Shown here: positions 10,935 through 57,195 of the stretch, one piece after another
How positions within the stretch are numbered: the stretch's first letter is position 1
Layout: each line of letters opens with the position of its first letter
From: Chiloscyllium plagiosum
Taxonomy: Eukaryota
Length of the DNA: 64,000 bases
Assembly: GCF_004010195.1 (NCBI RefSeq)
Contig: NC_057752.1
Span: 3,709,639-3,773,638, forward strand
Direction: 5' to 3'
Notes under the pieces: generated by a model
Seen by the model: only the letters and a program-made list of their open reading frames with translations
What the model was told of the DNA's origin: nothing
Databases searched by the model: none
Position numbers and translations under genes: made by a program

Positions 10935-13092
10935 TGGATCAGCAACTCAGAGATACCCACACCCCCCTCTTGAACATCCCTCCCTCCCCCTTCCCTCTGA
11001 CTCCATCCTCTCTCCTGACCCACCACTTATTGTGTCTTCAATATCCCACCACTCTGACCTCCCACTCTCTGATGCTGAACGTTTTGGACTCAGCGAAGGT
11101 CTTTGTTTTAACCCTCTGAGTCCCCACCTCAATGGATTTCGGATATGACATGACATTGAACTCTACTTCTGTCACCGTCCCACAGACCCCTTCACTCACC
11201 TCGAACACACTCCCGCCACCTGGAGCCCTCCCTCTTGGCTTTTTACCTGCACTCGATCTGTTCAGTGAGAACTGTTGGCATGACATTGATTGTCTCAATT
11301 TCTCTCCCCCCCCCCCCCCAACTTACCCAATCCAACCTTGCTCCCTCCGAAATGGCTACACTCAGTGCTCTCAGATCAAGCTCTGACGTTGTCATCAAGC
11401 CTGCCGACCAGGGTGGGGCTGTTGTTGTCTGGCATTCTGACCTCGACATTGTGAAGGCTGCTCTGGTACCTCCTCCTGTCTCCTGCTGGACAATGACCCC
11501 CACCATGGAACACCAGGCCATTGTGTCCATGACGATCACCAACCTCATCACAGCCGGCGATAGCCTCCCAGCTCATAGTCTCCCCATGCTGCACCTCTAC
11601 CTCCTTTCTAAAACCCACAAACAGGACCGCTTGGATCGACCCATTGCTTCTGCCTGCTCCTTCCCCACAGAACTCACCTCTTCCCACCCTGGCCCATGGT
11701 TTTTCTCCCTTTGTCGAGTCCCTTCCCTCCATGATCTTCTGACATTTTAGGCCCAGTTGTAGCATTTTCAGTTGACAGGCCGCAGTGGCCTCCTGCATTG
11801 ATGTGCAATCCCTTGACATGTCCATCCCCCCCCCCATCAGGATGGTGTCAGGGTTCTCTGCTTCTTGCTGGAGCAAAGGCCTGAACTGCACCCACCCACC
11901 ACCACCCTCCTTCTTGGCTGAGCTTCTCCTCACCCTGAATAACTTCTCTTTTAACCCCTCTCATTTTCTTCAGGTTGAAAGTGTGGCCATGGATACCCAC
12001 ACAGGCCCCAGCAATGCCTGTCTCTTTGTGAGGTACATGGAACATTCCTTGTTGACATCATCGGTGCTGCCACCCTCTCTTGTCTGGAATTGGAAAAATT
12101 CGTCAATTGCGCTTCCAATTTCCAGCCCGCCCTCACCTTCACCTGGTCCATCACTGATCCTCCCTTCCCTTCCTCAACATCTCTGTTTCCATTTCTGGGG
12201 ATAGCCTGGCACCAATATCTACAAACCCACCGACTGCCATCGTTACCTCGACGTCAGAGGAACCTCGATTATCCAAAGGACATGGGCAGGGGGTATTTCG
12301 TTTGGTTAATCAAATTCCGGCTAACGTTGTTTCACCAAGTACTGGAACCTTGCCATCTTGCTGGATAATCCGATATTTGGATATTAGAATGCCAGATAAT
12401 CGAGGTTCCTGTGTATACATCCTCACACCCTGCTTCCTGGAAGGACTCCATCCCATTCTCCCAGTTCCTCCATCTCCACCGAACCTGTTGTGACGCTGCC
12501 ACCTTCCACAGGGGAGGCCTCAGAAATGTCCACCTTTTTCCTAAACTGAGGATTCCCTGCTACCGTGGTGGACAGGGCCCTCAGCCGGGTCCGACCCATC
12601 TTCCACACATCTGCCCTCATCCCTTGCCTTCCCTGCCGCAACAACGATAGGGTCCCCTGGTCCTCACTTACCACCCCACCAGCTTCCACATCCAAAGGAT
12701 TAAGCCGTCATTTCCAACAGGATGCTACCACCAGATACTTATTCCCCTCCCCTCCCTCATCAGCATTCCATGTGGATTGCTCGCTTTAGTACGCTCTGGT
12801 CAACTCCTCCTCCATTCCCAAAATTTCCTCACACCCCAACAGCATCTTCTCAGGCAACTGCAGAAAGTGTAATACCTGTCCGTTTACTTCCTCCCACCTC
12901 AGTATCCAAGGGTCTAAACACACCTTCCAGGTGAAACAGTGAGTTACCCGCACGTCATTCAATCTAACCGACTGTCTTCGCAGTTTACACTGCAGTCTCC
13001 TCGACACTGGGGAGAGGAACCACAGACTGGGTGACCACTTTGCAGAACACCGTTGTTCACACCACAAAGGTGACCCTGGGCTTACAGTTGCT
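10935..13092 (+). mobile_element. Decayed Penelope-like element (RT through start of GIY-YIG)
   Basis: VVIKPADQGGAVVVW, LLSKTHKQDRLDRPIAS, LTLNNFSFN, YTSSHPASWKDSIPFSQFLHLHRTC; many frameshifts. Confidence 0.88.
12255..12413. mobile_element. Tc1/mariner(pogo)-like MITE inserted in the PLE
   Basis: TIRs CAGAGGAACCTCGATTATC ... GATAATCGAGGTTCCTGTG followed by TA; interrupts the PLE YLD|YTSSHP motif. Confidence 0.75.
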
Positions 13093-13624
13093 TGCCACCA
13101 TGTTCCCACATCAACATTCCCCATCACAGGCCCGCCACCATGTTCCCACACCAACATTCCCCATCACAGGCCTGCCACCATGTTCCCGCACCAACATTCC
13201 CCATCACAGGCCTGCCACCATGTTCCCACATCAACATTCCCCATCACAGGCCTGCCACCATGCTCCCACACCAACATTCCCGTCACAAGCCTGCAGCAGT
13301 GTTCCCACACCAACATTCCCATCGCAGGCCTGCTGCAGTGTTCCCACACCAACATTCCCCACCACAGGCCTGCTGCAGTGTTCCCACACCAACATCCCCC
13401 ATCGCAGGCCTGCTGCAGTGTTCCAACACCAACGTTCCCCATCACAGGCCTGCTGCAGTGTTCCCACACCAACATTCCCCATTGCTGTCCTGCTGCAGTG
13501 TTCCCACACCAACATTCCCCATTGCTATCCTGCTGCAGTGTTCCCACACCAACATTCTCCATTGCTGTCCTGCTGCAGTGTTCCCACACCAACATTCCCC
13601 ATCACAGGCCTGCTGCAGTGTTCC
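13093..13624 (+). repeat. Minisatellite, ~13 copies of a 39-40 bp unit
   Basis: Unit tgctgcagtgttcccacaccaacattccccatcacaggcc; first five units carry the gccacca variant. Confidence 0.95.
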
Positions 13625-13659
13625 ATCGCTGGACTCCAAATGTTATGTCTGCTCTTGTC

Positions 13660-15015
13660 CCAAAAATGCTGCCGGACCGATTCCATTCTCCCAGTTCCTC
13701 TGTCTCCATCGCATCTGTTCTGATGACGCCAACTTCGACAAGGGAGCTCCGAAATGTCCACCTTATTCCTCAACCGAGGATTCTCCAGCACCATTGTCGA
13801 CAAAGCCCTCAACCGGGTCCGATCCATGTCTGTACTTTGGCTCTCACTCCCCCTCTTCCTTCCTCCTTGTCCTTACTTACCATCCCACCAGCATCTGCCT
13901 CCAGAGGATCATGAGCAGCCATTTCTGCCAGATGCCAGCAAGATGCTACCACCAGACACATGGTCCCCTCCCTCCCATGTCCACCTTTCACAGGGACCGT
14001 TCACTCTGGGACATCCTGGTCTACTCTTTCTTCACTCCCAACATCCCTCCACAATCCCACGGCACCTTCCCCTGCAATCGCTCAAGGTGCAACACTTGCC
14101 CATTTACCTCCTCCCTCCTCCGTATCCAAGGGCCCAAACACACGTTTCAGGTGAAGCAGCACTTTATCTGCATTTTCCACAATCTGGTCTATTACTGATC
14201 ACAATGTGGTCTTCTCTGCGTTGGGGAATGAAACGTCGACTGTGTGACCATTTCGCAGAACATCTACGTTCTGCCTGCAAAAAGACCCTGAGCCTCCAGT
14301 TGCCTGTTACTTTAACATACCACCCTATTCCCTGGTCAACATCTCCTGTCCCAGGTTTGCAGCAGTATTCCAGCGAAGCTCAGCGCAAGCTGGGAAACCA
14401 ACACCTCATTGTCTGCTTGGGGACCCTGCAAACCTCCGGATTCAATACTGTGTTCAACAACTTTAGGGCCTGAACTCCCCCCATGACCAAGTCCTCATCC
14501 CACACACACCAGGCCTCGCTATCACACAGTCTGCTATTACATACAATCCATTGTTAGCCACTAACAGTTTCCATTAACAGCTAAATAAAAACCGAAAGAA
14601 CTGTGGATGCTGGAAATCAGAAGCAAAAACAGAAGTTGCTGGAAAAGCTCAGCAGGTCTGGCAGCATCTGTGAAGAGAAATCACTTCTCGGGTCCGGTGA
14701 CCCTTCCTCAGAACTTTCCCATTAACAGCTATTCACCCTCCCAGCCAGATCTTTATCCACTCCTTTGTCTGTCCAACTGTCCTTCTCTCTCTTTGGGCTC
14801 CATCCCTCCCTCTCGTTTACTCCTTACCTCCTTCCCCCACCCTAGCTTCTGCACATAAACCAACATTTTCCGAGTTCCCATCAGTTCTGGGGAAGGGTCA
14901 CTCAACCCGGAACGTTAACTCTGAGTTCTCTCCACAGATTCTGCCCGATCTGCTGAGTTACACGAGCGATCTCTGTGTCTGTTTCAGACCTCCAGCAGCT
15001 GCAGTTTTTTGGCTT
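13660..15015 (+). mobile_element. Penelope-like 3' half: RT C-terminus, GIY-YIG endonuclease and pLTR
   Basis: IPFSQFLCLHRICSDD, GTFPCNRSRCNTCP, KRRLCDHFAEHLRS, HLIVCLGTLQTSGFN; terminal repeat with degenerate hammerhead core near 14885. Confidence 0.88.
14584..14714 (-). mobile_element. pLTR fragment inserted into a pLTR of the same family
   Basis: Flanked by tttccattaacagcta (14568) / tttcccattaacagcta (14715); starts at GTTCTGAGGAAGGG on the minus strand. Confidence 0.7.
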
Positions 15016-18080: not shown

Positions 18081-18967
18081 CAGGGACAGCACAGGGTTAG
18101 ATACAGAGTAAAGCTGCCTCTACACCGTGCCCATCAAACACTCTCAGGACAGGGAAAGCACGGGGTTAGATATAGAGTAAAGCTGCCTCTACATTGCCCC
18201 TATCAAACACTCCCAGGACAGGGACAGCACAAGGTTAGATACAGAGTAAAGCTCCCTCTACACTGTCCCCCATCAAACACTGCCAGGACAGGGATAGCAC
18301 GGGGTTAGATCCAGGGTAAAACTGCCACTACACTGTCTCCCCATCAAACACTGCCAGGACAGGCACAGCACAGGGTTAGATACAGAGTAAAGCTCCCTCT
18401 ACACTGTCCCCCATCAAACACTGCCAGGACAGGGATAGCACGGGGTTAGATCCAGGGTAAAACTGCCACTACACTGTCTCCCCATCAAACACTGCCAGGA
18501 CAGGCACAGCACAGGGTTAGATATAGAGTAAAGCTCCCTCTACACTGTCTCCCCATCAAACACTACCAGGACAGGGACAGCACAGGGTTAGATATAGAGT
18601 AAAGCTCCCTCTACACTGTCTCCCCATCAAACACTACCAGGACAGGGACAGCACAGGGTTAGATATAGAGTAAAGCTCCCTCTACACTGTCTCCCCATCA
18701 AACACTACCAGGACAGGGACAGCACAGGGTTAGATATAGAGTAAAGCTCCCTCTACACTGTCTCCCCATCAAACACTACCAGGACAGGGACAGCACAGGG
18801 TTAGATATAGAGTAAAGCTCCCTCTACACTGTCTCCCCATCAAACACTACCAGGACAGGGACAGCACAGGGTTAGATATAGAGTAAAGCTCCCTCTACAC
18901 TGTCTCCCCATCAAACACTACCAGGACAGGGACAGCACAGGGTTAGATATAGAGTAAAGCTCCCTCT
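18081..18967 (+). repeat. Tandem repeat, ~12.5 copies of a 69-71 bp unit
   Basis: Unit ggttagatatagagtaaagctccctctacactgtctccccatcaaacactaccaggacagggacagcacag; the six units from 18515 are identical. Confidence 0.97.
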
Positions 18968-20829: not shown

Positions 20830-23435
20830 AGAGCAAGGGGATGTGATAGATGGCAGTTATAGGAAGGGGGGGAAGTCTCAGATACAGTCACATAGATGTG
20901 TTAACTCCAGGAAAGGTAAGAGAGGTAAGCAGGTAATGCAGGAGTCTTCTGTGGCTATCCCCATTTCAAACAAGTATGCTGTTTTGGAAAATGTAGGGAG
21001 TGATGGATTCTCAGGGGCACGTAGCACAAACAGCCAAGTTTCTGGTATTGAGACTGGCTCTAATGCAATGAGGGGTACGTCAGCTTCCAAGAGATCGACT
21101 GTGTTAGGGGACTCTCTAGTCTGAGGTACAGACAGACGTTTCTGTGGCCAGCAGCGAAAAATCAGAATGGTGTGTTGCTTCCCTGGTTATGGTAGGGGAT
21201 TTTAACTTTCCAAACATAGACTGGGACTGCAATAGCGTTAAGGGATTAGATGGAGAGGAATTTGTTAATTGTGTACAAGAAAATTTGCTGATTCAGTATA
21301 TGGATGTACCTATGAGAGAAGGTGCAAAACTTGACCTACTCTTGGGAAATAAGGCAGGGAAGGTGACTGAGGTGTCAGTGGGGGAGCACTTTGGGGCCAG
21401 CGACCATAATTCTATTAGTTTTAAAATAGTGATGGAAAAGGATAGACCAGATACAAAAGTTGAAGTTCTAAACTGGAGAAAGGCCAATTTTGATGGTATT
21501 AGGCAAGAACTTTCAAAAGCTGACTGGGGGCAGATGTTTGCAGGTAAAGGAACAGATAGAAAATGGGAAGCCTTCAGAAATGAGATAACGAGAGTCCAGA
21601 GAAAGTATATTCCTGTTAGGGAGAAAGGAAAGGCTGGTAGGTATAGGGAATGCTGGGTGACTAAAGAAATTGAGGGTTTGATTAAGTAAAAGAAGGAAGC
21701 ATATGTCAGGTATAGACAGGATAGATCGAGGGAATCCTTAGAAGAGCCAGTGGGAGTATACTTAAGAGGGAAATCAGGAGGGCAAAACAGGGACATGAGA
21801 TAGCTTTGGCAAATAGGGTTAAGGAGAATCCAAAGGGTTTTTACAAATACATTAAGGACAAAATGGTAATTAGGGAGAAAATAGGGCCCCTCAAAGATCA
21901 GCAAGACGGCCTTTGTGTGGAGCTGCAGGAGATACTAAACGAATATTTTGAATCAGTATTTACTGTGGAAAAGGACATGGAAGATATAGAATGTATGGAA
22001 ATAGATGGTGACATCTTGAAAAATGTCCATATTTCAGAGGAGGAAGTGCTGGACGTGTTGAAACGCATAAAAGTGGATAAATCCCCAAGACCTGATCAGG
22101 TGTACCCGAGAACTCTGTGGGAAGCTAGAGAAGTGATTGCGGGGCATCTTACTGAGATATTTGTATCATCGATAGTCACAGGTGAGGTGCCAGAAGACTG
22201 GAGGTTGGCTAACGTGGTGCCACTGTTTAAGAAAGGTGGTAAAAACAAGCCAGGGAACTATAGACCGGTGAGCCTGACCTTGGTGGTGGGCAAGTTGTTG
22301 GAGGGAATCCTGAGGGACAGGATGTACATGTATTTGGAAAGGCAAGGACAGACTAGGAATAGTCAACATGGCTTTGTGTGTGGGAAATCATGTCTCACAA
22401 ACTTTATTGTGTTTTTTTGAAGAAGTAACAAAGAGGATTGATGAGGGCAGAGCAGTAGATGTGATCTATATAGACTTCAGTAAGGCATTTGATAAGGTTC
22501 CCCATGGGAGACTGGTTAGCAAAGTTAGATCTCATGGAATGCAGGGAGAATTAGCCATTTGGATACAGAACTGGCTCAAAGGTAGAAGACAGAGGACAGT
22601 GGTGGAGGGTTGTTTTTCAGACTGGAGGCCTGTGACCAGTGGAGTGCTACAAGGATCAGTGCAGGGTCCTCTACTTTTCATCATTTATATAAATGATTTG
22701 GATGTGAACATTAGAGGTATAGTTAGTAAGTTTGCAGATGACACCAAAATTGGAGGTGTAGTGGACAGCGAAGAGGGTTACCTCAGATTACAACAGGATC
22801 TTGACCAGATGGGCCAATGGGCTGAGAAGTGGCAGATGGAGTTTAATTCAGATAAATGCGAGGTGTTGCATTTTGGGAAAGCAAATCTTAGCAGGACTTA
22901 TACACTTAATGGTAAGGTCCTAGGGAGTGTTGCTGACCAAAGAGACCTTNNNNNNNNNNNNNNNNNNNNNNNNNNNNNNNNNNNNNNNNNNNNNNNNNNN
23001 NNNNNNNNNNNNNNNNAGGCTGGGGCTGTTTTCCCTGGAGCGTCGGAGGCTGAGGGGTGACCTTATAGAGTTTTATAAAATCACGAGGGGCATGGATAGG
23101 ATAAATAGAGAAAGTCTTTTCCCTGGGGTGGGGGAGTCCAGAACTAGAGGGCATAGGTTCAGGGTGAGAGGGGAAAGATATAAAAGAGACCTAAGGGGCA
23201 ACGTTTTCACACAGAGGGTGGTACGTGTATGGAATGAGCTGCCAGAGGAAGTGGTGGAGGCTGGTACAATTGCAACATTTAAAAGGCATCTGGATGGATA
23301 TATGAATAGGAAGAGTTTGGAGGACTATGGGCCAGTTGCTGGCAAATGGGACTAGGTTGGGTTGGGATATCTGGGCGGCATGGACGAGTTGGACCGAAGG
23401 GTCTGTTTCCGTGCTGTACATCTCTATGACTCTGT
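20830..23435 (+). mobile_element. Long CR1 LINE copy (ORF1 esterase remnant, endonuclease, RT, 3' UTR), decayed
   Basis: TVLGDSLV (GDSL-like), MVGDFNFPNIDW, LDLLLGN, SDHNSI, NYRPVSLT, SKFADDTK; internal deletion; contains a gap. Confidence 0.93.
22950..23016. other. Assembly gap (67 N)
   Basis: Run of N. Confidence 1.
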
Positions 23436-38359: not shown

Positions 38360-40678
38360 CAAGTCTTGGATACAATCGCTATTGAGTGTTCCTCTCCATT
38401 GGGCCACCTCTGAGCTAATACTACCCTGATGCTGTGCAGGGAGATATCGCATGTCAACACCAGATCTCACTGAGGATCATAGTAGGCCAACACCTTAGAG
38501 GATGATAAAGGTTTCTTCACTTCCCTGAAAGTTATGGCATGGCCAATGGATCCTTTTCAAGGTTGACCCCTTTTTATGAGTTGATGCACGGGTGCAAGGA
38601 TGGAGGCCAGGTTATGTATGAACTTTCCATAATAATTCACCAACAGAAAGAAAGACTGATGTTCCTGCACAGATGTTGGAGCTGAGGCACCTTTGACTGC
38701 CCTCACTCTATCTTCAAATGGGTGTGACCCAGTCTTGTCATCGCTGTTGTCCAAGTAAGTCATTTGCGGTGCCTGGAACACACATTTTTCCCCTCTGGGA
38801 GAAACACCTAAGTACTATGTCCAAGTTCTCTAAGTGTTCCTTATTGGTCTTCCCTGTTATTAACATGTCATCTGGATAAATGGCAACCTGAGGTAGACCT
38901 TGTAAAATGTTCTCCATCGTCCGCTGAAAGATTGCACAGGCTGATGATACCCAAATGGCAGTCTGGTATATCAGCACAAACCCTTATGGGTATTTAATTG
39001 TAGCATACCGCTGGGAATCCTCATCTCACCGCAATTGCAAATACATATGGCTCATGTCCAGCTTTGTAAAGGACAGTCACCCTGCCAGCTTTGTGTACAA
39101 ACCCTCTATGTGAGGGATTGGTATTTATCCAGTGGTGATAAGTGGTTTACTGTTTGTATAAAATACTCACAAAGGTGAGCCAACCCATCGGGCTTCACAA
39201 TCAGTACGCCTGCTGCTGCCCATTTGGTTTGATGATTCCTTCCCTTTCCAGTCTCCCTGATTTCTGCCTGTTTTCACCCATAAGGCATATGGCACTGGGT
39301 GGGTCTTAGAGAATCATGGAACTGTGTCCTGGTCAACATGCAAGGTAGCCTTTGCTCCTTTAACAATCCCTAGACCTTCCTGAAAATCTTACAGGTATTT
39401 AATTAGGACCTCACCTCAGGCAGCCATTTTCTAATCGTGAGCCAATCAAGGTGAATCTCTCTCAATCAATTCCACCCCATCCAGCTTGGGCCCGAGCCTG
39501 TTACTACAGTCACTGAACCAGCTGCTTCTCATATCAGACTGGAACAAAAGTTGTCCCCTTAATCAGTACCAGTTCCCCAGTTTACGTTCTCAGTCTAGCA
39601 GAGGTCATGCATAAACAGAAGGGTTGGAGTTCAGAGTGAATTTTATTAAATACTGGTTCCACAATCCCTGATACAGCCGTGCCAGTATCAACCTCCATTT
39701 GAACTGGGTGACCATTTAACCAGACATTTATTTTGATTGGTTCTGATTTGGATGTTGCTAAGTAATGTAGCTGTTCCAAACCAGATGTAGGTGGGCTTTC
39801 CAGGGTGTGCACTCTCCTGGTTACCAGTCTGTCACTGAGTTCTCTCACTCCATTTCAGTCTAGTGGGACTATCTTGCTATCTTGAATCCACAAACCATCA
39901 GCAACTACACTGGTTTGCCGATCTGGATCCTGAAAAAAAAATGTTAACCATTTGGCCGAGGCTTGGCTTTGTTTTGGGGTTTTGCTGTGGGCTGACAGAG
40001 AGTCCCTCTGCTCGTGATAATGTCCTGAGTGAGACTACACAATTGCCTTCACTCAAGTGGTGTTTCCCAAGCTCAGTCAGACTGGTGAGGTTGCCCACTT
40101 CCATCAGAATACCCTGTAGCTCCCATGCTCCATTTTCTAATGACAAAGCCAGTTGTAGTATCTGTTTGAAGTCCAGTTGGACTTCAGCTAGTAGGTGCGT
40201 TTGCATGGTTACATCATTAATCCTACATACCAAAAAGTTTCTCAGCATCTCATTAAGGGTTAAAGCCTCTGTCAGTCATCTTAGCCTTGTTAAAAATCCT
40301 GATATGGATTCCCCGGTTCTTGAACTGCCAAGTAAACCTGATAATGTCTCAGAATTGGAGTTGTAATTTTCTTTAGCTAACCCTTGAAAAGTTTTTGTAT
40401 CTGATGGCTCAGGGAAAGTTAGGCTCCTCATAACCAAAAAAGCTATGGGTCCACAAGCTGTCAGAAGAATTACTCGTAGATTTTCATCTGCCCCAGTGTC
40501 AGGTGCCCGGAGAAAAAAAAAAACATTCTTTCCACATACTGGGCCCAGTCTTTGACGGCTGGTTCGAATGAGTCAAGCTTCCCAAATAATGGCATGATGC
40601 CAGAAATGCTTACCCCAACTCAAAGACAACTGGTATAAGCGAATTTCTTCAGGAGCATGCTACTCTCTCATCACCACC
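38360..40678 (-). mobile_element. Gypsy/Ty3 LTR retrotransposon internal region (gag, protease, RT, RNase H start), decayed and 3'-truncated
   Basis: gag start MPLFGKLDSF..DWAQYVER at 40595; protease MEVDTGTAVS; RT AIFQRTMENIL..IYPDDMLI, VNYYGKFI; RNase H LAYYDP..VLTCDIS; PBS-like TGGTGATGAG. Confidence 0.9.
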
Positions 40679-40783
40679 TGGTATCCCGTCACCAAGTCAC
40701 CCTTTATTTACAGTTGGAGAGTCCTTGACACTGATCCAGCCCCCTCAGAGCCAGCTCTGAGTGAGCAGAACTTCTAACACTCC

Positions 40784-42238
40784 TTTTTTTTAAAATTTTA
40801 TTATTAACCAGAACAAATTACCAACAAACAGTTAACATGAACAGCCATTTACAAGAAACAGCAATTTACAGGGGAACGGGGCAGCAAATCCAGACCCCAA
40901 ACCTCACCATACAACCAGTTCACAGGGAAAAGAGGATGAACCTCAAATCCCACTTTCAGTCATCATAAAAGTAACAGTAACAAATACATACAAGACAGTC
41001 CAATCAAATGAGAAACAGTGCATAGAATACAGACACCCTCAGCAACCCAGCAAGCCGCCTGTCCCACTCACCTTCCGGCCACTCTAAGGCAGCCCACTAC
41101 CACGCCATGTCCAGCTCTCGGCCCGCTCCACACCCCTACCAGCTTTTGGTCCGCTCCAACACCTTCCGACCACCTCCAGGACAGCCCGTCCCGATTACGC
41201 CTTCTCAGGACGATAGCGCTCAGAACAGCCTACCCACCTTCCGGCTCTCAGGGCGACTGGCATCGGGATGGCCTACCCACACTCCAGCTGTTTGGGCAGC
41301 CTACCCACCTTCAGGTTCACAGGAGGTCCTCCCCACCCTCCAGCTCTCAGTGTGACAGCTTTCAGGATGACCTATAAGCCCACAACTCACAGCAAGGCCT
41401 GCTAGACCCAGGGACACACAAGACAGTGCAGGTGATAATCCCAACAAGCAACAAGACAGAGTCAATTACCAACAAACAGAGTCCTTTCTGGTACACAGAG
41501 TCCATTACCATAAACAGTTCTCTTCAGAATGCAGAATCCATTCCCAGGAACAGAGTCCACTCCAGTTTACAGAATACATTGTTAGAGATAGAGTCCACAA
41601 CCAAAGGCAGAGTCCACTCCTGAAGGCAGCAAATACATACCCCACAGCACACACACAGGTGTTCAGTCTCCATAGAGGCCTGGTTTATCCACAGACAACC
41701 AGGCCAACTCACAGGAACACAGTACATTGTAAAGGTATGGTTAACTCACGGGTTTTGTCCACTCCCGAAGGCAGAATCCACTCCAGGATGCAGCAGATGT
41801 TCACCTCCCAACACACACAATCACAGGTGTTCAGTCTTTACAGAGGCCTAGTCCTCCCACAGAAGGCCAGGCCTACCCACACAGGAACAGTTCATCTGGA
41901 AAGGCGCAGTATCTCACAGGGGGTCAATCCAAACACCAAAGCATAAAACACATGCAAAAAAAAAAAGGAAAGAAAACCAGAATGCGAGGGCTATGCCCTG
42001 CCACAAAAATCAACAGAATTCTTTTCTCAAATTAAAAGAAAAACGAATATCACACAGGCTGCAACCAGCCAGTGAAATAACAGTTCCTATTGAGAACTGA
42101 AATACACCTGTAACGAATTGACTGTTTAGACCAGCCAGTTCAGGAACCAGGTTCCCCCCAAAAAAACACAGAAACCAACTGTAGCAGTACACACTGGCTG
42201 TGTGGCCAGTCAGCTCAGTGTCAGTCACCTGACACAAA
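40784..42238 (-). mobile_element. ~1.45-kb non-coding poly(A) retroposon inserted in the LTR
   Basis: AATAAA plus A-tail at 40784 (minus strand); flanked by duplicated LTR sequence; internal repeats; no recognisable ORF. Confidence 0.65.
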
Positions 42239-42285
42239 TGGAGAGTCTTTGACACTGATCCAGCTCCCTCAGAGCCAGCTCTCAG

Positions 42286-43225
42286 TTTTCTTTCTTTTCC
42301 CAAGTGGCCAGTGACAAACACTGCCCTTCACATCAAAGGGCAGTGTGTGTGATCAAACAGTGAAGGGGAGGGNNNNNNNNNNNNNNNNNNNNNNNNNNNN
42401 NNNNNNNNNNNNNNNNNNNNNNNNNNNNNNNNNNNNNNNNNNNNNNNNNNNNNNNNNNNNNNNNNNNNNNNNNNNNNNNNNNNNNNNNNNNNNNNNNNNN
42501 NNNNNNNNNNNNNNNNNNNNNNNNNNNNNNNNNNNNNNNNNNNNNNNNNNNNNNNNNNNNNNNNNNNNNNNNNNNNNNNNNNNNNNNNNNNNNNNNNNNN
42601 NNNNNNNNNNNNNNNNNNNNNNNNNNNNNNNNNNNNNNNNNNNNNNNNNNNNNNNNNNNNNNNNNNNNNNNNNNNNNNNNNNNNNNNNNNNNNNNNNNNN
42701 NNNNNNNNNNNNNNNNNNNNNNNNNNNNNNNNNNNNNNNNNNNNNNNNNNNNNNNNNNNNNNNNNNNNNNNNNNNNNNNNNNNNNNNNNNNNNNNNNNNN
42801 NNNNNNNNNNNNNNNNNNNNNNNNNNNNNNNNNNNNNNNNNNNNNNNNNNNNNNNNNNNNNNNNNNNNNNNNAGTGTCCCCAAGGCAAGTCCCAGGCAGA
42901 AGCAGTGGATGTGGGCCTCTAACAACAGCAGCAGTGATGGTGGAGGTCCTGGGAGGTGCCCCAAGGCAAGTCCCATGCAGTAGCAGTGAGGCAGGTCCGG
43001 GCGGGGTCCCAGAGACCAGCAGTGGGAGTGGGCCCCAGGTCAGCAGCAACACTCCCTTGACCTGGGTGAGGCCCAGGCTGCAGCTCCAAAAGTAGGCCCA
43101 GGACTCAGAACTCTCACCTCCTCCTCCTGCCTCTGCCTCCTCCTTCTTCCTTCTTCCCTAGAGCTCTCTCGATGTGGGGCAGCTGGTCCAGGGATAGTCC
43201 CTTTCCCCTCTGACACCTTCAAGGA
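42286..43225 (-). mobile_element. Tx1-like LINE ends flanking an assembly gap, inserted in the LTR
   Basis: 42286-42372 is the reverse complement of the 3' UTR of the Tx1-like copy at 52660-52716; GC-rich repeated 5' region 42873-43225. Confidence 0.7.
42373..42872. other. Assembly gap (500 N)
   Basis: Run of N. Confidence 1.
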
Positions 43226-46081
43226 GGAGAGTCCTTGCACACACACGCACATCCAGCTTCCTCAGAAGCAGCTCTCAGAGTGAACAGAACCTCTGACCCT
43301 CCTGTTTATTTCTGTCAGCCAGAGCTCCCTGATTGGACTAGATTAACAGCCCCAATCAGGGAACTCAGATTCTATGAGGTCCATCTGACTGACCTCATTA
43401 CAATCACTGCAATAACATTTCCAATTTTATCATTTCTTCTCAAGATCCAGTTCCTTTGTCCTGGTTGTATTGGTCACTCTGTTCCGTATCCTAGCAATAG
43501 CTGTTATATTTTATATATACTGTGGCGAGCAGAACTGTACACTGTGTTCCGAGTGTTGTCACATCAATGAATATTAAGTGGCAATATTACTTCACTATTC
43601 CAGCTCAACATTAACCTTTTAAGGCATCCCAACATTTGATTTGCTTTACTCACTGTCACTGAGCATGCAAGGGCCACAGGCTACAGATGGGAGACCTCAG
43701 TTTGCAAGTTCCTAGCTTGACAGGTTATCAAGCGTATAACAGTACTTCAACCATAATTGAAGATCTACTGCGGTTATATCATACTCATTGCTTTTTAAGT
43801 TTGATAAGATTTATTTTCTACACTTTCATCTGCACACACTACGTTTATGTCATGTACCCAGACCTGTGGCAAAGTTGCTCTGTAACCACCTGCAAAAAGC
43901 AGTTTAAGGCAACTCCTGGTCTCTCATTATAGGGCAATGCTCTACATTGACAAGGTGCATGAGCAGAATGGCACAACCGAGGTTAGGAATTCAGAATAGT
44001 AACACGTCTTATCCCATGCAAATATCAGATCACCACACCACCATTACAAGACTTACTCCTTTTAACTTTGAGAATCATGGTTCCAGTTCCTTAACTTCAG
44101 TTAAAGGTTCAAGACAGCTAATGTAATATTAGAAATGATCTTTTTCTTTCAGCATTCAACACTTTGACGTATGTGGTATAATCCTTTTGTTTGTGAGCAT
44201 TCCATCAAAAAGGAGCCCTTCAAATAGCACAGGAAGAATCATGTATCTTGCCCTGAACAACTTGCCCTTACAATGCAAAGTTCCTCCTTGGAGTCAAGAG
44301 CTAACATAAAAAGGTCAAATGACAGATCTTCCACTTTCCTAGTCAGACGTGCCCTTTGGCAACATTTCGACATGCACTTTTGTTCCTCCAAAATAATATA
44401 CTATTTCTGGTTTTGCAAGAAAGGATTAACTCTTTGCACTCTTCCAAAGACAGCTCGATCATAAGACAAGGTCAGGTGTATGAGAGGACATGCTGTTAAA
44501 AAATAAATGTCAGGCCGGAGGTAGATTGAAATGGACAGATTTAAGCTTCTTACTTAGGCTCCATCATGGACAAACACCCTGATGGCTTAGTGTGCCCCAT
44601 TGTGTGGTTCCATACGGAGCGATGAAGTGTAAAATGTCCCAGTTTGGTCTGGCAACAGTTGCATCACTACATATGGAGACCGTGGAGCGAGGAAGAGAAA
44701 GAACTGCCAGACTTCATGCTCCTGGTTGCTGTTTCTACTAGACTGTACATTTGGATTGCTTTAATCTCGACTCCAGGACAAATTCCTCACCAACACATAC
44801 AGCCTGGAATCCTGCATTAAGATTAGTAAGGTCTAGAGAAAGCCACTGGCACACATTATAACAGTGTTTCTTTACCAATCAGTATCGTAGAAAGGGCTGA
44901 GGGAATGTGAGTTCGGTCTAAACAGTGCAGTAAAACTCATTCTAGGTTGATACTAAATTGGGCTCTTCGCAAAAGTTTGATGAAGGCTGCTTAATTATAA
45001 ACAGTTATGCCAAGGTGATGGCAAATTGAGAAGAATTGACATTCTTGGAGCTGTTTAACTCAGTTTATCATGTCAGCCTCCAGTGTCTTTCACCAATAGA
45101 CTAGTTAATGGCTGTAGGTTACCTTGGGGAAAAGTTAAATGGCTCCACACCTTTATCTCCAGTCTGGGAGGTGAGATTCACTCCATCTTCCAAGTACAGC
45201 AAGATCTAGGATTCCAACAGCAGGAGGCAAAAATGATGGTCTATGGAGTATCTCTTAAACTAGAGGGAGAATAATTGAATTTGAGTCTCTGTATAACATT
45301 TATTTATCTAAAGCAGTTCTTATTGGATTAAATGTTCTTTGTTTTTACCAAGTGACTTTCTTGAGTTAAATCCAGAAAAAAATCTTATTAAAGCCTGTCA
45401 AATGTTACTTTAGTATCCATTTATAATTTAAATATAGAGTACATTTGTATCGCAATTATCTGCTCTTTAACATGATTGTCATGGATTGAAATTTCAGAAG
45501 GATTTTATTTCTGCAAAACAAAAGGAATTATCTCTTTAAAACCTAACTTTGGAGGGAGGGAGAGGATCTGTAGTTTGAGATTCAATACACACACGCGCAC
45601 ACACACACCCCATTTGGGTGGATGAGCAGCAGATTATGTTGTGCTATCTGGGGCTTGGAGCAGGGAAGAGCCCAGAGCAACATCTGAAGCAGTGAAACTT
45701 CCAAGCACAGATGAAAGAGACGAATAATCTTCTCACTCCCAACGAACTCTAAAATGAATAAGTAAACTCATGCAGACATAAACTATTCATCAAAGTATGA
45801 ATTTTAAAATAATTCCCATGTCATCATTTTATTTACTACTTGGGGGCACAGGTAGAGAAAGAGGCAAGTGTAATGAGGGTCACATTGGCATAATGACATT
45901 AGAAAGATGTGTCACGATCCACTGCATTGAAGGCACACATACACCTACCCAATAAATAAAGCACTCATCAACTTCCTCCCTTCATTAACAATATGAAGGA
46001 CAGACCTATTTGATGTTTGCACAATCTTAATTGTGGACAAAATGGCTGCCACAGTTCCCATAACAGCCACATCATTGCAGA

Positions 46082-51819: not shown

Positions 51820-52386
51820 AAGTTAATATCCTCCTCATTATTTTTTTCTGTTGCACAGGTCTCCAATTGGCGTGCACGAAACCTCTTGGATGCGCAGCTG
51901 AGAGAGAATATTGTCTGTAACCTGCCCCATCCTTCTCCCCTCCTGAAGCCCCTCCATACACTGTGTGCTGTCTGTTCAATTTCACTGAGCACTGGCAGCT
52001 TGCCAATATTTTGTACAAGCCACCCAACCAGGGAAACAGTTTGTGATGGCACTGGCTGTTAGGGGTGTCTCTTCCAACACCTGTCCAGCTTGCACCAGAG
52101 TGGAACATTGCCCCGAACTGCTCTTTCAAAGTCTTAACAGAGTCTGTTTTTGCAGCTCCTTCATTGGACTGTGACTTCTGCTCAGGATTGGACGTTTTAT
52201 AACAAGCAAGGATGGAACATAAACATAAGATTAAGTCAACTTGCCTATAGTCAGACAGCAGGGAAACAGACCCTTTAGTCAATCCCAAACTCAACTAGTC
52301 CCATCTGCCTGCTCCTGGCCCATATCCCTCCTAACCTTTCTTGTTCATGTCCTTATCCAAATTAACCAATAATAACCACCACTGCA

Positions 52387-52929
52387 CCCGGTACGGAGGA
52401 GGGAGGGCAGGTCTGAAGACCTCCTCGTGGGTCTGCTCCTGGGCCTGGCGAAACTGACCATAAACAGGTCCAGGCAGCGGGCCGTGGAGGGGGTCGTTAG
52501 GGCCGACTGCCTGCCCCTCTTCCGCGGTTACGTTAGAGCCCGGGTGTCCTTGGAGAAGGAGCACGCGGTCTCCACCAACACCCTGGAGTTGTTCAGGGAG
52601 AGGTGGGTGCCGCAGGGAGTGGAGTGCATTATTTCCCCCTCCAACTCTATGTTGGTTTAATCCCTGCCCTCCCCTTCACTGTTTGATCACACAGCATTGC
52701 CCTTTGATGTGAAGGGGTGTTTCCTTTCTTCCTGGTGGTGGAAATTGAATAAAGATTTGTACACCTTGTGTCTTTCACTGGGTCTCACACCTGCACACAC
52801 ACACAACATGGGTACTGGGGAAAAATATATAAAAAAACAGAAGTGTCAGATATCCTGTTCATTCTGACAGCTGGCTCTGAGAGACTCTCCACATGTAAAT
52901 AAAGGGTGACTTGGTGACAGAAAAAAAAA
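52387..52929 (+). mobile_element. 5'-truncated Tx1-like LINE with 3'-appended Gypsy LTR segment
   Basis: GLLLGLAKLTINRSR..LFRGYVRARVSLE..FRERW; A-tail 52821-52837; LTR piece 52838-52920; second A-tail; imperfect TSD aataaccaccactgca / aataaacactgca. Confidence 0.75.
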
Positions 52930-53287
52930 TAAACACTGCATAGCTGCCAAATCTCATTTGGCTTAAACAATCTAATTTGACCTAAACTTTTAAAAGTAGA
53001 TAAAACTGGATATACTTAATGGAATTAGTCTGATATCATTGATCATAATCTCTTTCTCAACAGTTGCCCAAGAGTGGCAATATTACCAGTCTTTAAAGTC
53101 TGTGCTGTCTTTCCAAAGCACTGTTTGAGATTGTTAAGTGTTTAAATAAACATGCTTAAACAGCTGGGATAGTTTCAGCAGAGAGCCAGCACAGACAATG
53201 ATAGGCCAAATGGCCTCCTTTTCCACTGTATCATTTTGTGATTCTTTAAAATCTGGAGCTACTTTCCATTCAGAATCTCAACCAAAA

Positions 53288-54629: not shown

Positions 54630-56279
54630 AGAGGGAGCTTTACTCTATATCTAACCCTGTGCTGTCCCTGTCCTGGTAGTGTTTGATGGGGAGACAGTGT
54701 AGAGAGAGCTTTACTCTATATCTAACCCTGTGCTGTGCCTGTCCTGGCAGTGTTTGATGGGGAGACAGTGTAGATGGAGCTTTACTCTGTATCAAACCCT
54801 GTGCTTTCCCTGTCCTGAGAGTGTTTGATGGGGACGGTGTAGAGGTAGCTTTACTCTATATCTAACCCCGTGCTGTCCCTGTCCTGGGAGTGTTTGATGG
54901 GGATAGTAAAGAGGGAGCTTTACTCTGTACCTAACCCTGTGCTGTCCCCGTCCCTGGCAGTGTTTGATGGGGGACAGTGTAAAGGGAGCTTTACTCTGTA
55001 TCTAACCCCGTGTTCTACCTGTCCTGGGAGTGTTTGACAGGGACAGTGTCGAGGAAGCTTCACTCTGTATCTAACCCTGTGCTGTCCCTGTATCTAACCC
55101 CGTGCTTTCCCTGTCCTGTGAGTGTTTGATGGGGACGGTGTAGAGGTAGCTTTACTCTGTATCTAACCCTGTGCTGTCCCTGTCCTGTGAGTGTTTGATG
55201 GGGACGGTGTAGAGGCAGTTTACTCTGTATCTAACCCTGTGCTGTCCCTGTATCTAACCCTGTGCTTTCCCTGTATCTAACCCCGTGCTTTCCCTGTCCT
55301 GAGAGTGTTTGATGGGGACGGTGTAGAGGAAGCTTTACTCTGTACCTAACCCTGTGCTGTCCCTGTATCTAGCCCCGTGCTTTCCCTGTCCTGAGAGTGT
55401 TTGATGGGGCCGGTGTAGAGGAAGCTTTACTCTGTACCTAACCCTGTGCTGTCCCTGTCCTGAGAGTGTTTGATGGGGACGGTGTAGAGGAAGCTTTACT
55501 CTGTATCTAACCCTGTGCTGTCCCTGTCCTGAGAGTGTTTGATGGGTACGGTGTAGAGGAAGCTTTACTCTGTATCTAACCCTGTGCTGTCCCTGTCCTG
55601 TGAGTGTTTGATGGGGACGGTGTAGAGGAAGCTTTACTCTGTATCTAACCCTGTGCTGTCCCTGTACCTAACCGTGTGCTTTCCCTGTATCTAACCCCGT
55701 GCTTTCCCTGTCCTGAGCGTGTTTGATGGGGACGGTGTAGAGGAAGCTTTACTCTGTACCTAACCCTGTGCTGCCCTGTCCTGAGAGTGTTTGATGGGGA
55801 CGGTGTAGAGGAAGCTTTACTCTGTATCTAACTCTGTGCTGTCCCTGTATCTAACCCTGTGCTGTCCCTGTCCTGAGAGTGTTTGATGGGAACAACATAG
55901 ACTGTCGGTTCAATTCCCATCACCGGCTGAGGCTACCATGAAGGACTCTCCTTCTCAACCTCTCTGGTCACCTGAGGTGTGGTTGCTCTCAGGTTAAACC
56001 ACCACGAGCCATCTCTCTCTCATGACATAGCAGCCCTATGGTTTGGTAAAACTATGGCAACTTGACTTGGCCTAGGAGTGCGTTTGATGGGGGACAATAG
56101 AGAGAGCTTTACTCTGTATCTAACCCCGTGCTGTCCCCGTCCTGGGAATGTTTGATGGGGGATAGTGGAGAGGGAGCTTTACTCTGTATCTAACCCCGTG
56201 CTGTCACCGTCCTGGGAATGTTTGATGGGGGATAGTGGAGAGGGAGCTTTACTCTGTATCTAACCCCGTGCTGTCCCTG
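54630..56279 (-). repeat. ~70-bp tandem repeat array, reverse orientation, with 23-bp sub-repeats and a SINE-like insert at ~55895-56070
   Basis: Unit ctttactctgtatctaaccctgtgctgtccctgtcctgagagtgtttgatggggacggtgtagaggaag. Confidence 0.95.
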
Positions 56280-57195
56280 CTCCAGGAAAATCTTCTGAAA
56301 ATGCAAATACACTACATCCACTGAATCTACCTTATCAAAGCAGCATCAAAAACCCGTATAGGTTTTATAAAACATTATTTCCCCATCATAAACCCATGTT
56401 GACTTTATCCAATCTGTCAATTCTGTTCTCAATATTCAGTATTCAAATCATTTACAATAAATTCTAATCTCTTTCCTCCTGCTAATGTAAGGCGAACTGG
56501 TGCAGATCCTTATTCACCCAGCCCTGTTTTCTTTTATTAGCAATCCTTCAGTGTGCAGTCACCACTCAAGAACTGATAACAATTTGAAGGGATGAAAACA
56601 CGAGATTTCTGATATTGAGAAATCCTTATTCAATTTTGTCCGAGAGTTTTGAATGAGCAGTGACTCCCTTATTTCCTTGTATTTATTTGTCCTTATTAGT
56701 TAATCTCCCCTTATTGCTAGCAACCCCCACTCGATCCTCATCCCAAGATACAAGATGGCGCTGATTCTCGGCATGAAAGTCAGAGTGGTTACCTGGCAAC
56801 AGCAGCTCACCATTTGCTTCTTCAGGCCTTCATTCAGCTCCGCCTTGACCTCCATTTCCCTGTCTGCTCCTCGGGCACCACCCACTTTCACTCTTCATCC
56901 ATGCAAATGGGAGCAGCACTAAACCAACAGCCTCATCACATCATCTTAGCTGCTGGCAGACCAACTCACGTACCACTTCAGCCCTTAAGGACTTCACTTT
57001 GGACACCAGGAGCAGATGTCCTGCAAGCTTCTTTCCAGTTCTCTTTGCACACAGGGACACATACACATGCATCTCATGCATCACACACAGTGCATCTTCT
57101 GGCACTTTGCTCATCCACTTTACAATGACTTAGAGGCTGCCCGCATCTATCATTTGTTTCTTACCTCATTGGATCTTCAAGCGCAACTTCCAGTC

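Follow-up and report, generated by a model that had tools for sequence, protein, structure and literature searches.

Retrotransposons of the human L1 and SVA families are known to carry downstream sequence with them when transcription passes a weak signal of their own and ends at a later AATAAA, and this 3' transduction is treated as standard in PMC9311842, PMC3649969 and PMC3287187. As described there for human L1 and SVA (PMC9311842, PMC3649969), such events resemble the LINE-LTR chimera reported here in that a weak own signal was passed, an AATAAA lies 10-40 nt before the cleavage site, two A-tails are present and flanking sequence was moved. They differ from it in that the shark flank is a multicopy LTR site repeatedly hit by the family rather than unique DNA, and the shark LINE is of Tx1 type. 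The SINE-R part of SVA is LTR-derived. It is of retroviral origin and contains the SVA poly(A) signal in the account given by PMC3287187, and in SVA as in the chimera an RNA mobilised by a LINE ends at a signal taken over from an element of retroviral type. The borrowed piece is fixed in the SVA family, whereas in the shark LINE it is rare and lies outside the usual tail.

Target preference has been published for the Tx1 clade (PMC4640811 and PMC1950540), and two crocodilian Tx1 families prefer LTR retrotransposons (PMC4494074). The shark LINE likewise appears to favour an LTR retrotransposon as a target. PMC4494074 also reports tandem insertions of SINEU-3 that sandwich a target duplication; its main text names no LTR position, and the single reference to transduction there concerns 5' ends only. 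For R2Ol, read-through RNA that contains downstream 28S target sequence was reported to pair with the target and thereby raise insertion efficiency in an assay (PMC6530143). R2Ol is thus comparable to the shark LINE as a site-preferring non-LTR element whose RNA is able to carry its own downstream target; however, the pairing effect was seen with R2Ol, and the R2 endonuclease is of another type. A Tx1 copy carrying its LTR target as far as the LTR poly(A) site was not found in the literature searched, a scope that left out most subscription journals and Repbase. The process itself is known and the chimera is a clean example of it; 3' transduction and LTR-preferring Tx1 families have each been published, and their combination was not found.

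Structure of the LINE-LTR chimera

The chimera (Table 1) lies in a 64-kb stretch of shark DNA that was analysed as a whole (the window). A sequence-only reading of this stretch had described an ORF2 end, a 3' UTR and an A-tail with 83 bp of Gypsy LTR sequence behind it, an imperfect target-site duplication around the unit and no LTR sequence on its 5' side, and this description was confirmed in each respect. The LINE and LTR parts span 52387-52920, one duplication encloses both of them (52371-52386 and 52928-52940, differing by one substitution and one 3-bp indel), and comparison with the window sequence found no LTR match to the left (5') of the LINE copy. The LTR piece ends as had been claimed, with its AATAAA at 52898-52903 followed by 17 nt and then by the second A-run at 52921, and the internal deletion of about 20 bp proposed for it measured 19 bp (near 52881). 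Three hallmarks of 3' transduction were present, if not perfect: a LINE 3' end and first A-tail (short and imperfect) followed by non-LINE sequence, a poly(A) signal 10-40 nt before the second A-tail, and a single, imperfect duplication around the LINE and the piece that it carried.

Table 1. Positions of the chimera's components and of the Gypsy element used for comparison, numbered from the first base of the window.
Feature	Positions	Strand	Remarks
Left target-site duplication	52371..52386	+	Shares its final 3 bases (52384-52386) with the LINE, a microhomology at the point of 5' truncation
L1/Tx1-type ORF2 end, ~90 last codons and stop, 5'-truncated	52387..52660	+	Assigned by homology
LINE 3' UTR	52661..52820	+	93% over 58 bp to 42316-42372
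First A-rich tail, imperfect and short	52821..52837	+	Presumed tail of the source copy
Gypsy LTR piece, 83 bp	52838..52920	+	Starts directly behind the TATA-like box and ends at the poly(A) cleavage site
Second A-run, presumed poly(A) tail of the retrotransposed RNA	52921..52929	+	Poly(A) point of RNA from other LTR copies
Right target-site duplication	52928..52940	+	Continues into non-LTR flank in both organism A and organism B
5' LTR of a decayed Gypsy element	40680..43403	-	Three overlapping pieces split by two inserts
Broken gag-protease-RT-RNase H region	38362..40595	-	Colinear with residues 1-757 of P0093

Within the LINE part, the ORF2 stop codon occupies 52658-52660, and the alignment of a contig from another LINE locus begins at 52384. 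Three features that were absent from the sequence-only reading were seen in the 3' end of this copy: the LINE's own AATAAA (52748-52753, inside the 3' UTR), the loss of 24 bp from the UTR at 52716/52717, which was exposed by loose ends at 52716 and 52720 in public runs, and a first tail shorter than the longer tail of the family. This first tail may take in some of the TATA-like box of the LTR. The 24-bp and 19-bp deletions are private to this copy or rare. An older LINE fragment (52246-52362) ends 9 bp to the left of the chimera. The right duplication begins with ATAAACA, identical to seven bases of the LTR site; this string occurs 14 times in the window, and the left duplication reads differently. 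A short target motif common to the LTR site and the site at 52928-52940 is possible from these letters.

Identity of the two parts and the comparison locus

The ORF2 end was 42% identical to residues 1230-1307 of the 1308-aa alligator protein P0089 (E 4e-15), which comprises an APE-type endonuclease, an RT and a C-terminal zinc-binding domain, the latter below the Pfam cut-off. The best solved relatives of P0089 were L1 ORF2p, and its score was 88.5 bits against an L1 endonuclease carrying the Tx1L loop and 81.5 bits against the wild type. The named relatives closest to the ORF2 end were from sharks and rays, with a weak Pfam match to RT among those from sharks; no Pfam family was found for the fragment of 52387-52660 itself. 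By homology the fragment is placed in the L1 group. Its assignment to Tx1 is indirect, through the similarity to P0089 and the 7-bit gain with the Tx1L loop, and the Tx1-clade ORF2 architecture (endonuclease, RT and zinc-binding region) is seen via the P0089 homology only. The ORF2 end of this LINE is found in the public gene models P0006, P0010, P0040, P0052 and P0089 (annotated as pentraxin, monoglyceride lipase, dynein, FAM241B and rhombotin-1, respectively), and P0089, labelled rhombotin-1, is a whole LINE ORF2; these names are probably annotation errors.

The LTR piece was identical to 40688-40783 at 68 of 81 aligned bases and to 43228-43304 at 47 of 63. A chance match was rejected, as the match score of 73 compares with a maximum of 29 among 2840 random window pieces. 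The LTR is considered to be of Gypsy type because it leads into a region colinear with a protease-RT-RNase H-integrase polyprotein (P0093, with its domains in that order); the integrase is found in P0093 only, and the window copy ends in RNase H. No Pfam family was found for three of the five Gypsy pieces, the gag piece gave no homologue, and structure matches of the RT piece were weak (best E 0.016). The LTR begins with TG at 43403, but its 3' end could not be recognised, and the 64-kb window contains no other LTR of the element. A 24-base LTR motif gave no matches in metagenome contigs and none in viral contigs.

The decayed LTR contains a LINE tail at 42316-42372 that resembles the UTR of the chimera, is the sole other piece of the family shown in the window, and meets the LTR ∼26 nt downstream of the TATA-like site (at 42285). 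The sequence-only reading had called the chimera a third Tx1-like copy and had matched its tail-LTR junction to an insertion junction at 40783. The match of the junctions stood, with alignment to within 1-2 nt, but the element inserted there was not shown to be Tx1. The 1.46-kb insert (40783-42238, minus strand) gave no significant match to LINE DNA or to full-length ORF2 and was rejected as a proven Tx1 copy; with one other family piece shown in the window, the count of three is unsupported. The piece at 42873-43226 likewise gave no significant ORF2 match.

Several other observations were made at this locus and across the window. The 40783-42238 insert is A-tailed, lies at the LTR's TATA-like site, has no coding match and contains an internal repeat of ∼150 bp (41593-41735 and 41757-41904); it is possibly non-autonomous. 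The LTR pieces flanking the two inserts at 40715-43304 (minus strand) overlap by ∼47 bp and ∼70 bp, far above usual target duplications, and agree at 58 of 70 bases (left versus right) and 44 of 47 bases (middle versus right); both inserts begin past one and the same LTR position. A joint from 52849 to 52831 in run X9 suggests a similar LTR repeat of ∼40 bp with only an A-run between its copies. The first of two assembly gaps (N at 42373-42872 and 22950-23016) separates the LINE tail at 42316-42372 from the piece at 42873-43226, which need not belong to one element. Elsewhere, a pair of related tandem arrays (unit length ∼71 bp) lies 36 kb apart in opposite orientation (18081-18967 and 54630-56280), several long open frames run across an ∼80-bp tandem repeat (13090-13625) at 12943-14473, and a diverged duplication of ∼640 bp links 12450-13094 with 13680-14306.

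DNA depth, RNA ends and the insertion site in public runs

Four of the 24 public runs listed for this stretch were examined, with matches accepted from 80% identity. In DNA run X1 the summed depth fell from 94,729 at 52814 to 148 at 52830, a decrease of more than 600-fold at the LINE-LTR junction (depths of summed contigs are not equivalent to copy numbers). In addition, 197 RNA reads departed from the window sequence at 52804 into a longer, non-LTR LINE tail, and loose ends at 52883 (305 in X1 and 351 in X9) represented LTRs without the 19-bp deletion. These observations place the LTR piece outside the tail that the LINE usually has. Transcription of the LINE family appears to run in the direction of the element itself: in RNA run X21 its 3' end was strongly strand-biased, with a mean depth of 473 versus 19 at 52740-52779, unlike the neighbouring repeat at 52260-52360.

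Run X21, a poly(A)-selected single-cell run (one sample, 2% of the run read), also revealed the ends of LTR transcripts. Position 52921 was covered by 152 reads, all in one orientation, 72 of which (28 starts) had one extra LTR base before the As, and 142 reads had loose A-rich ends behind 52933 that started as a run of As. Only 2 reads covered 52881, and the polyadenylated reads therefore come from other LTR copies. The LTR RNA thus ended +17/+18 nt after the LTR AATAAA, within the range of ∼15-20 nt that had been anticipated for cleavage. Use of the LTR poly(A) signal is very probable, because the 142 reads enter poly(A) at the 52921 point; identical ends could also arise if priming took place on the A-runs of other retrocopies in the genome. 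Beyond 52921, 17 contigs in X1 and 20 in X9 continued with G, near the contig ends, and may be further DNA copies of the LTR followed by an A-run.

The junction of LTR, A-run and flank was carried by a contig of organism A (52897-53280, with 0 differences) and by one of organism B (52893-53278, with 5 other letters and 3 gaps). The insertion is older than the split of these organisms. An empty site was not encountered: no joint skipping the insertion was present among the 15 shown of 219, and organisms A and B were both filled. The left junction was bridged by no contig among those listed.

Probable origin of the chimera and possible use of the LTR by the LINE family

We interpret 52371-52940, with a probability of roughly 0.8, as the product of 3' transduction, the source copy having lain at the TATA-like site of the LTR. 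Starting from the observed anatomy, LTR identity, LTR-family RNA ends and rarity of the chimera, we infer a source, an order of events and an empty site as follows. The source LINE, a member of an abundant shark L1/Tx1-type family, would have sat in sense orientation within a Gypsy LTR, directly behind its TATA-like box. Its transcript would have bypassed the LINE's AATAAA (52748) and short A-tail, run 83 or more nt into the LTR, and been cleaved and polyadenylated 17 nt past the LTR AATAAA, as is suggested for this event by the use of the signal in the LTR family in one RNA run. ORF2 would then have nicked an A/T-rich non-LTR site, and reverse transcription primed in the poly(A), according to the established LINE mechanism, would have copied the LTR piece, the UTR and ∼90 codons before the 5' end was joined through the 3-bp microhomology, leaving a duplication of 13-16 bp. 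The resulting structure is what was seen; the individual steps of insertion are those presumed by analogy with the established mechanism. Read-through with polyadenylation at the LTR signal, as the sequence-only reading had proposed, is supported by the RNA ends and by an LTR piece that is not fixed in the LINE. The proposed source copy in an LTR fared less evenly: other LINE-LTR junctions exist at the TATA-like site, but no source locus with a matching 3' flank was found, only the same type of junction at other loci. The window LTRs are not the source, since they are only 75-84% alike to the LTR piece.

The same sequence at 52371-52940 would also arise from a template switch, in which reverse transcription starts in the poly(A) tail of an RNA from the Gypsy element, copies R and a little U3, and jumps at the A/T-rich TATA-like box to the A-tail of a LINE RNA with no need for a source copy in an LTR. 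LTR RNAs ending at the 52921 point exist in X21, and PMC4494074 discusses template jumps in connection with SINEU elements mobilised by Tx1. Genomic junctions of LINE tail and LTR at the TATA-like site exist at other loci, however, and thus a ready-made template was available, which is simpler than a switch; we regard the switch as quite unlikely. A two-step origin, in which an LTR-ended polyadenylated retrocopy came first and a LINE later inserted at its TATA-like site, removing the left part, is very improbable. The contigs that continue past 52921 with G are perhaps such LTR-then-A-run copies, and the LTR piece is more diverged from the window LTRs than the LINE part is from the family majority, from which it has 9 near-fixed differences among the rows shown. 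An older LTR is, however, equally expected under transduction, and the left duplication directly abuts the LINE with 3-bp microhomology, leaving neither an LTR remnant nor a second duplication.

It is highly improbable that the chimera is the remnant in place of a LINE-in-LTR that lost its left part and the LTR end by deletions, with the duplication and the second A-run due to chance. Such a history might be read from the two other deletions in the copy (24 and 19 bp), the imperfect duplication and the older LINE fragment ending 9 bp to the left, but the A-run begins exactly at the polyadenylation point of the LTR RNA, a comparable A-run (A8, 10-30 nt later) follows 1 of the 73 AATAAA sites in the window, and the alignment score of the duplication was equalled at 10 of 2232 A-rich control sites, in a test designed after the site had been seen. 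Finally, the LTR-like piece might be a fixed 3' terminus of a LINE subfamily, carried along as that subfamily spread. The depth with the window base at 52882 (∼60 in X1 and 41 in X9, versus 4-12 on single-copy flanks) makes a few more copies conceivable, but a fixed tail, which had been named as a finding that would overturn the transduction, was rejected as scarcely credible on account of the more than 600-fold fall in depth at the junction, the 197 RNA reads with the other family tail and the hundreds of LTR contigs without the 19-bp deletion.

The transduction reading raises the question of how often the family enters the LTR. Joints of LINE into LTR made up 7 among the 15 shown of 219, and two of these landed at 52832 and 52834. 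Two of four LINE-to-LINE tandem joints had a spacer consisting of an A-run and the LTR's CAGGAG, and the spacers of the remaining two were non-LTR (12 rows shown of 72). Among 88 homologous proteins, 34 had a testable tail and 2 of these, both whale-shark gene models, continued into LTR-derived peptide, one of them at the identical LTR site; two such scores occurred in 0 of 1000 control sets and the top score alone in 13 of 1000. The LINE 3' depth in X1 was ∼15-30 times that of the LTR (depth, not copy number). Kojima's rule for a target-specific Tx1 family is the presence of one sequence in more than 20% of flanks. The evidence supports a favoured site in the LTR rather than strict targeting, because the 52387-52920 copy itself integrated at a non-LTR site. 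The targeting proposed from sequence alone is retained to this extent; that copy and the sister at 42285, ∼26 nt downstream, speak against its strict form.

A broader reading, which we put forward tentatively and consider unlikely, is that the LINE exploits the Gypsy LTR as a ready-made expression cassette: insertion directly behind the TATA-like box would give it an upstream promoter and a downstream poly(A) signal, both supplied by the LTR. The RNA of the LINE would carry target sequence able to pair with the nicked LTR, steering the next insertion, for which the read-through RNA of R2Ol provides the model. Copies of the 52387-52920 type would then be rare misses that kept the LTR piece, and the 47-bp and ∼70-bp LTR overlaps around the two inserts at 40715-43304 would have been copied from RNA of this kind and would not be ordinary target duplications.

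The chimera has no evident function and is an ordinary dead retrocopy, the fossil of one read-through transcript. It shows that LTR-resident copies of the LINE were transcribed and mobile, not merely parked, and it locates the LTR poly(A) site to the base. Genome-wide counts of such chimeras could measure the activity of the family from LTR-resident sources and their landings outside LTRs, and would make it testable whether the LINE gains a promoter and a terminator from the transposon that it targets.
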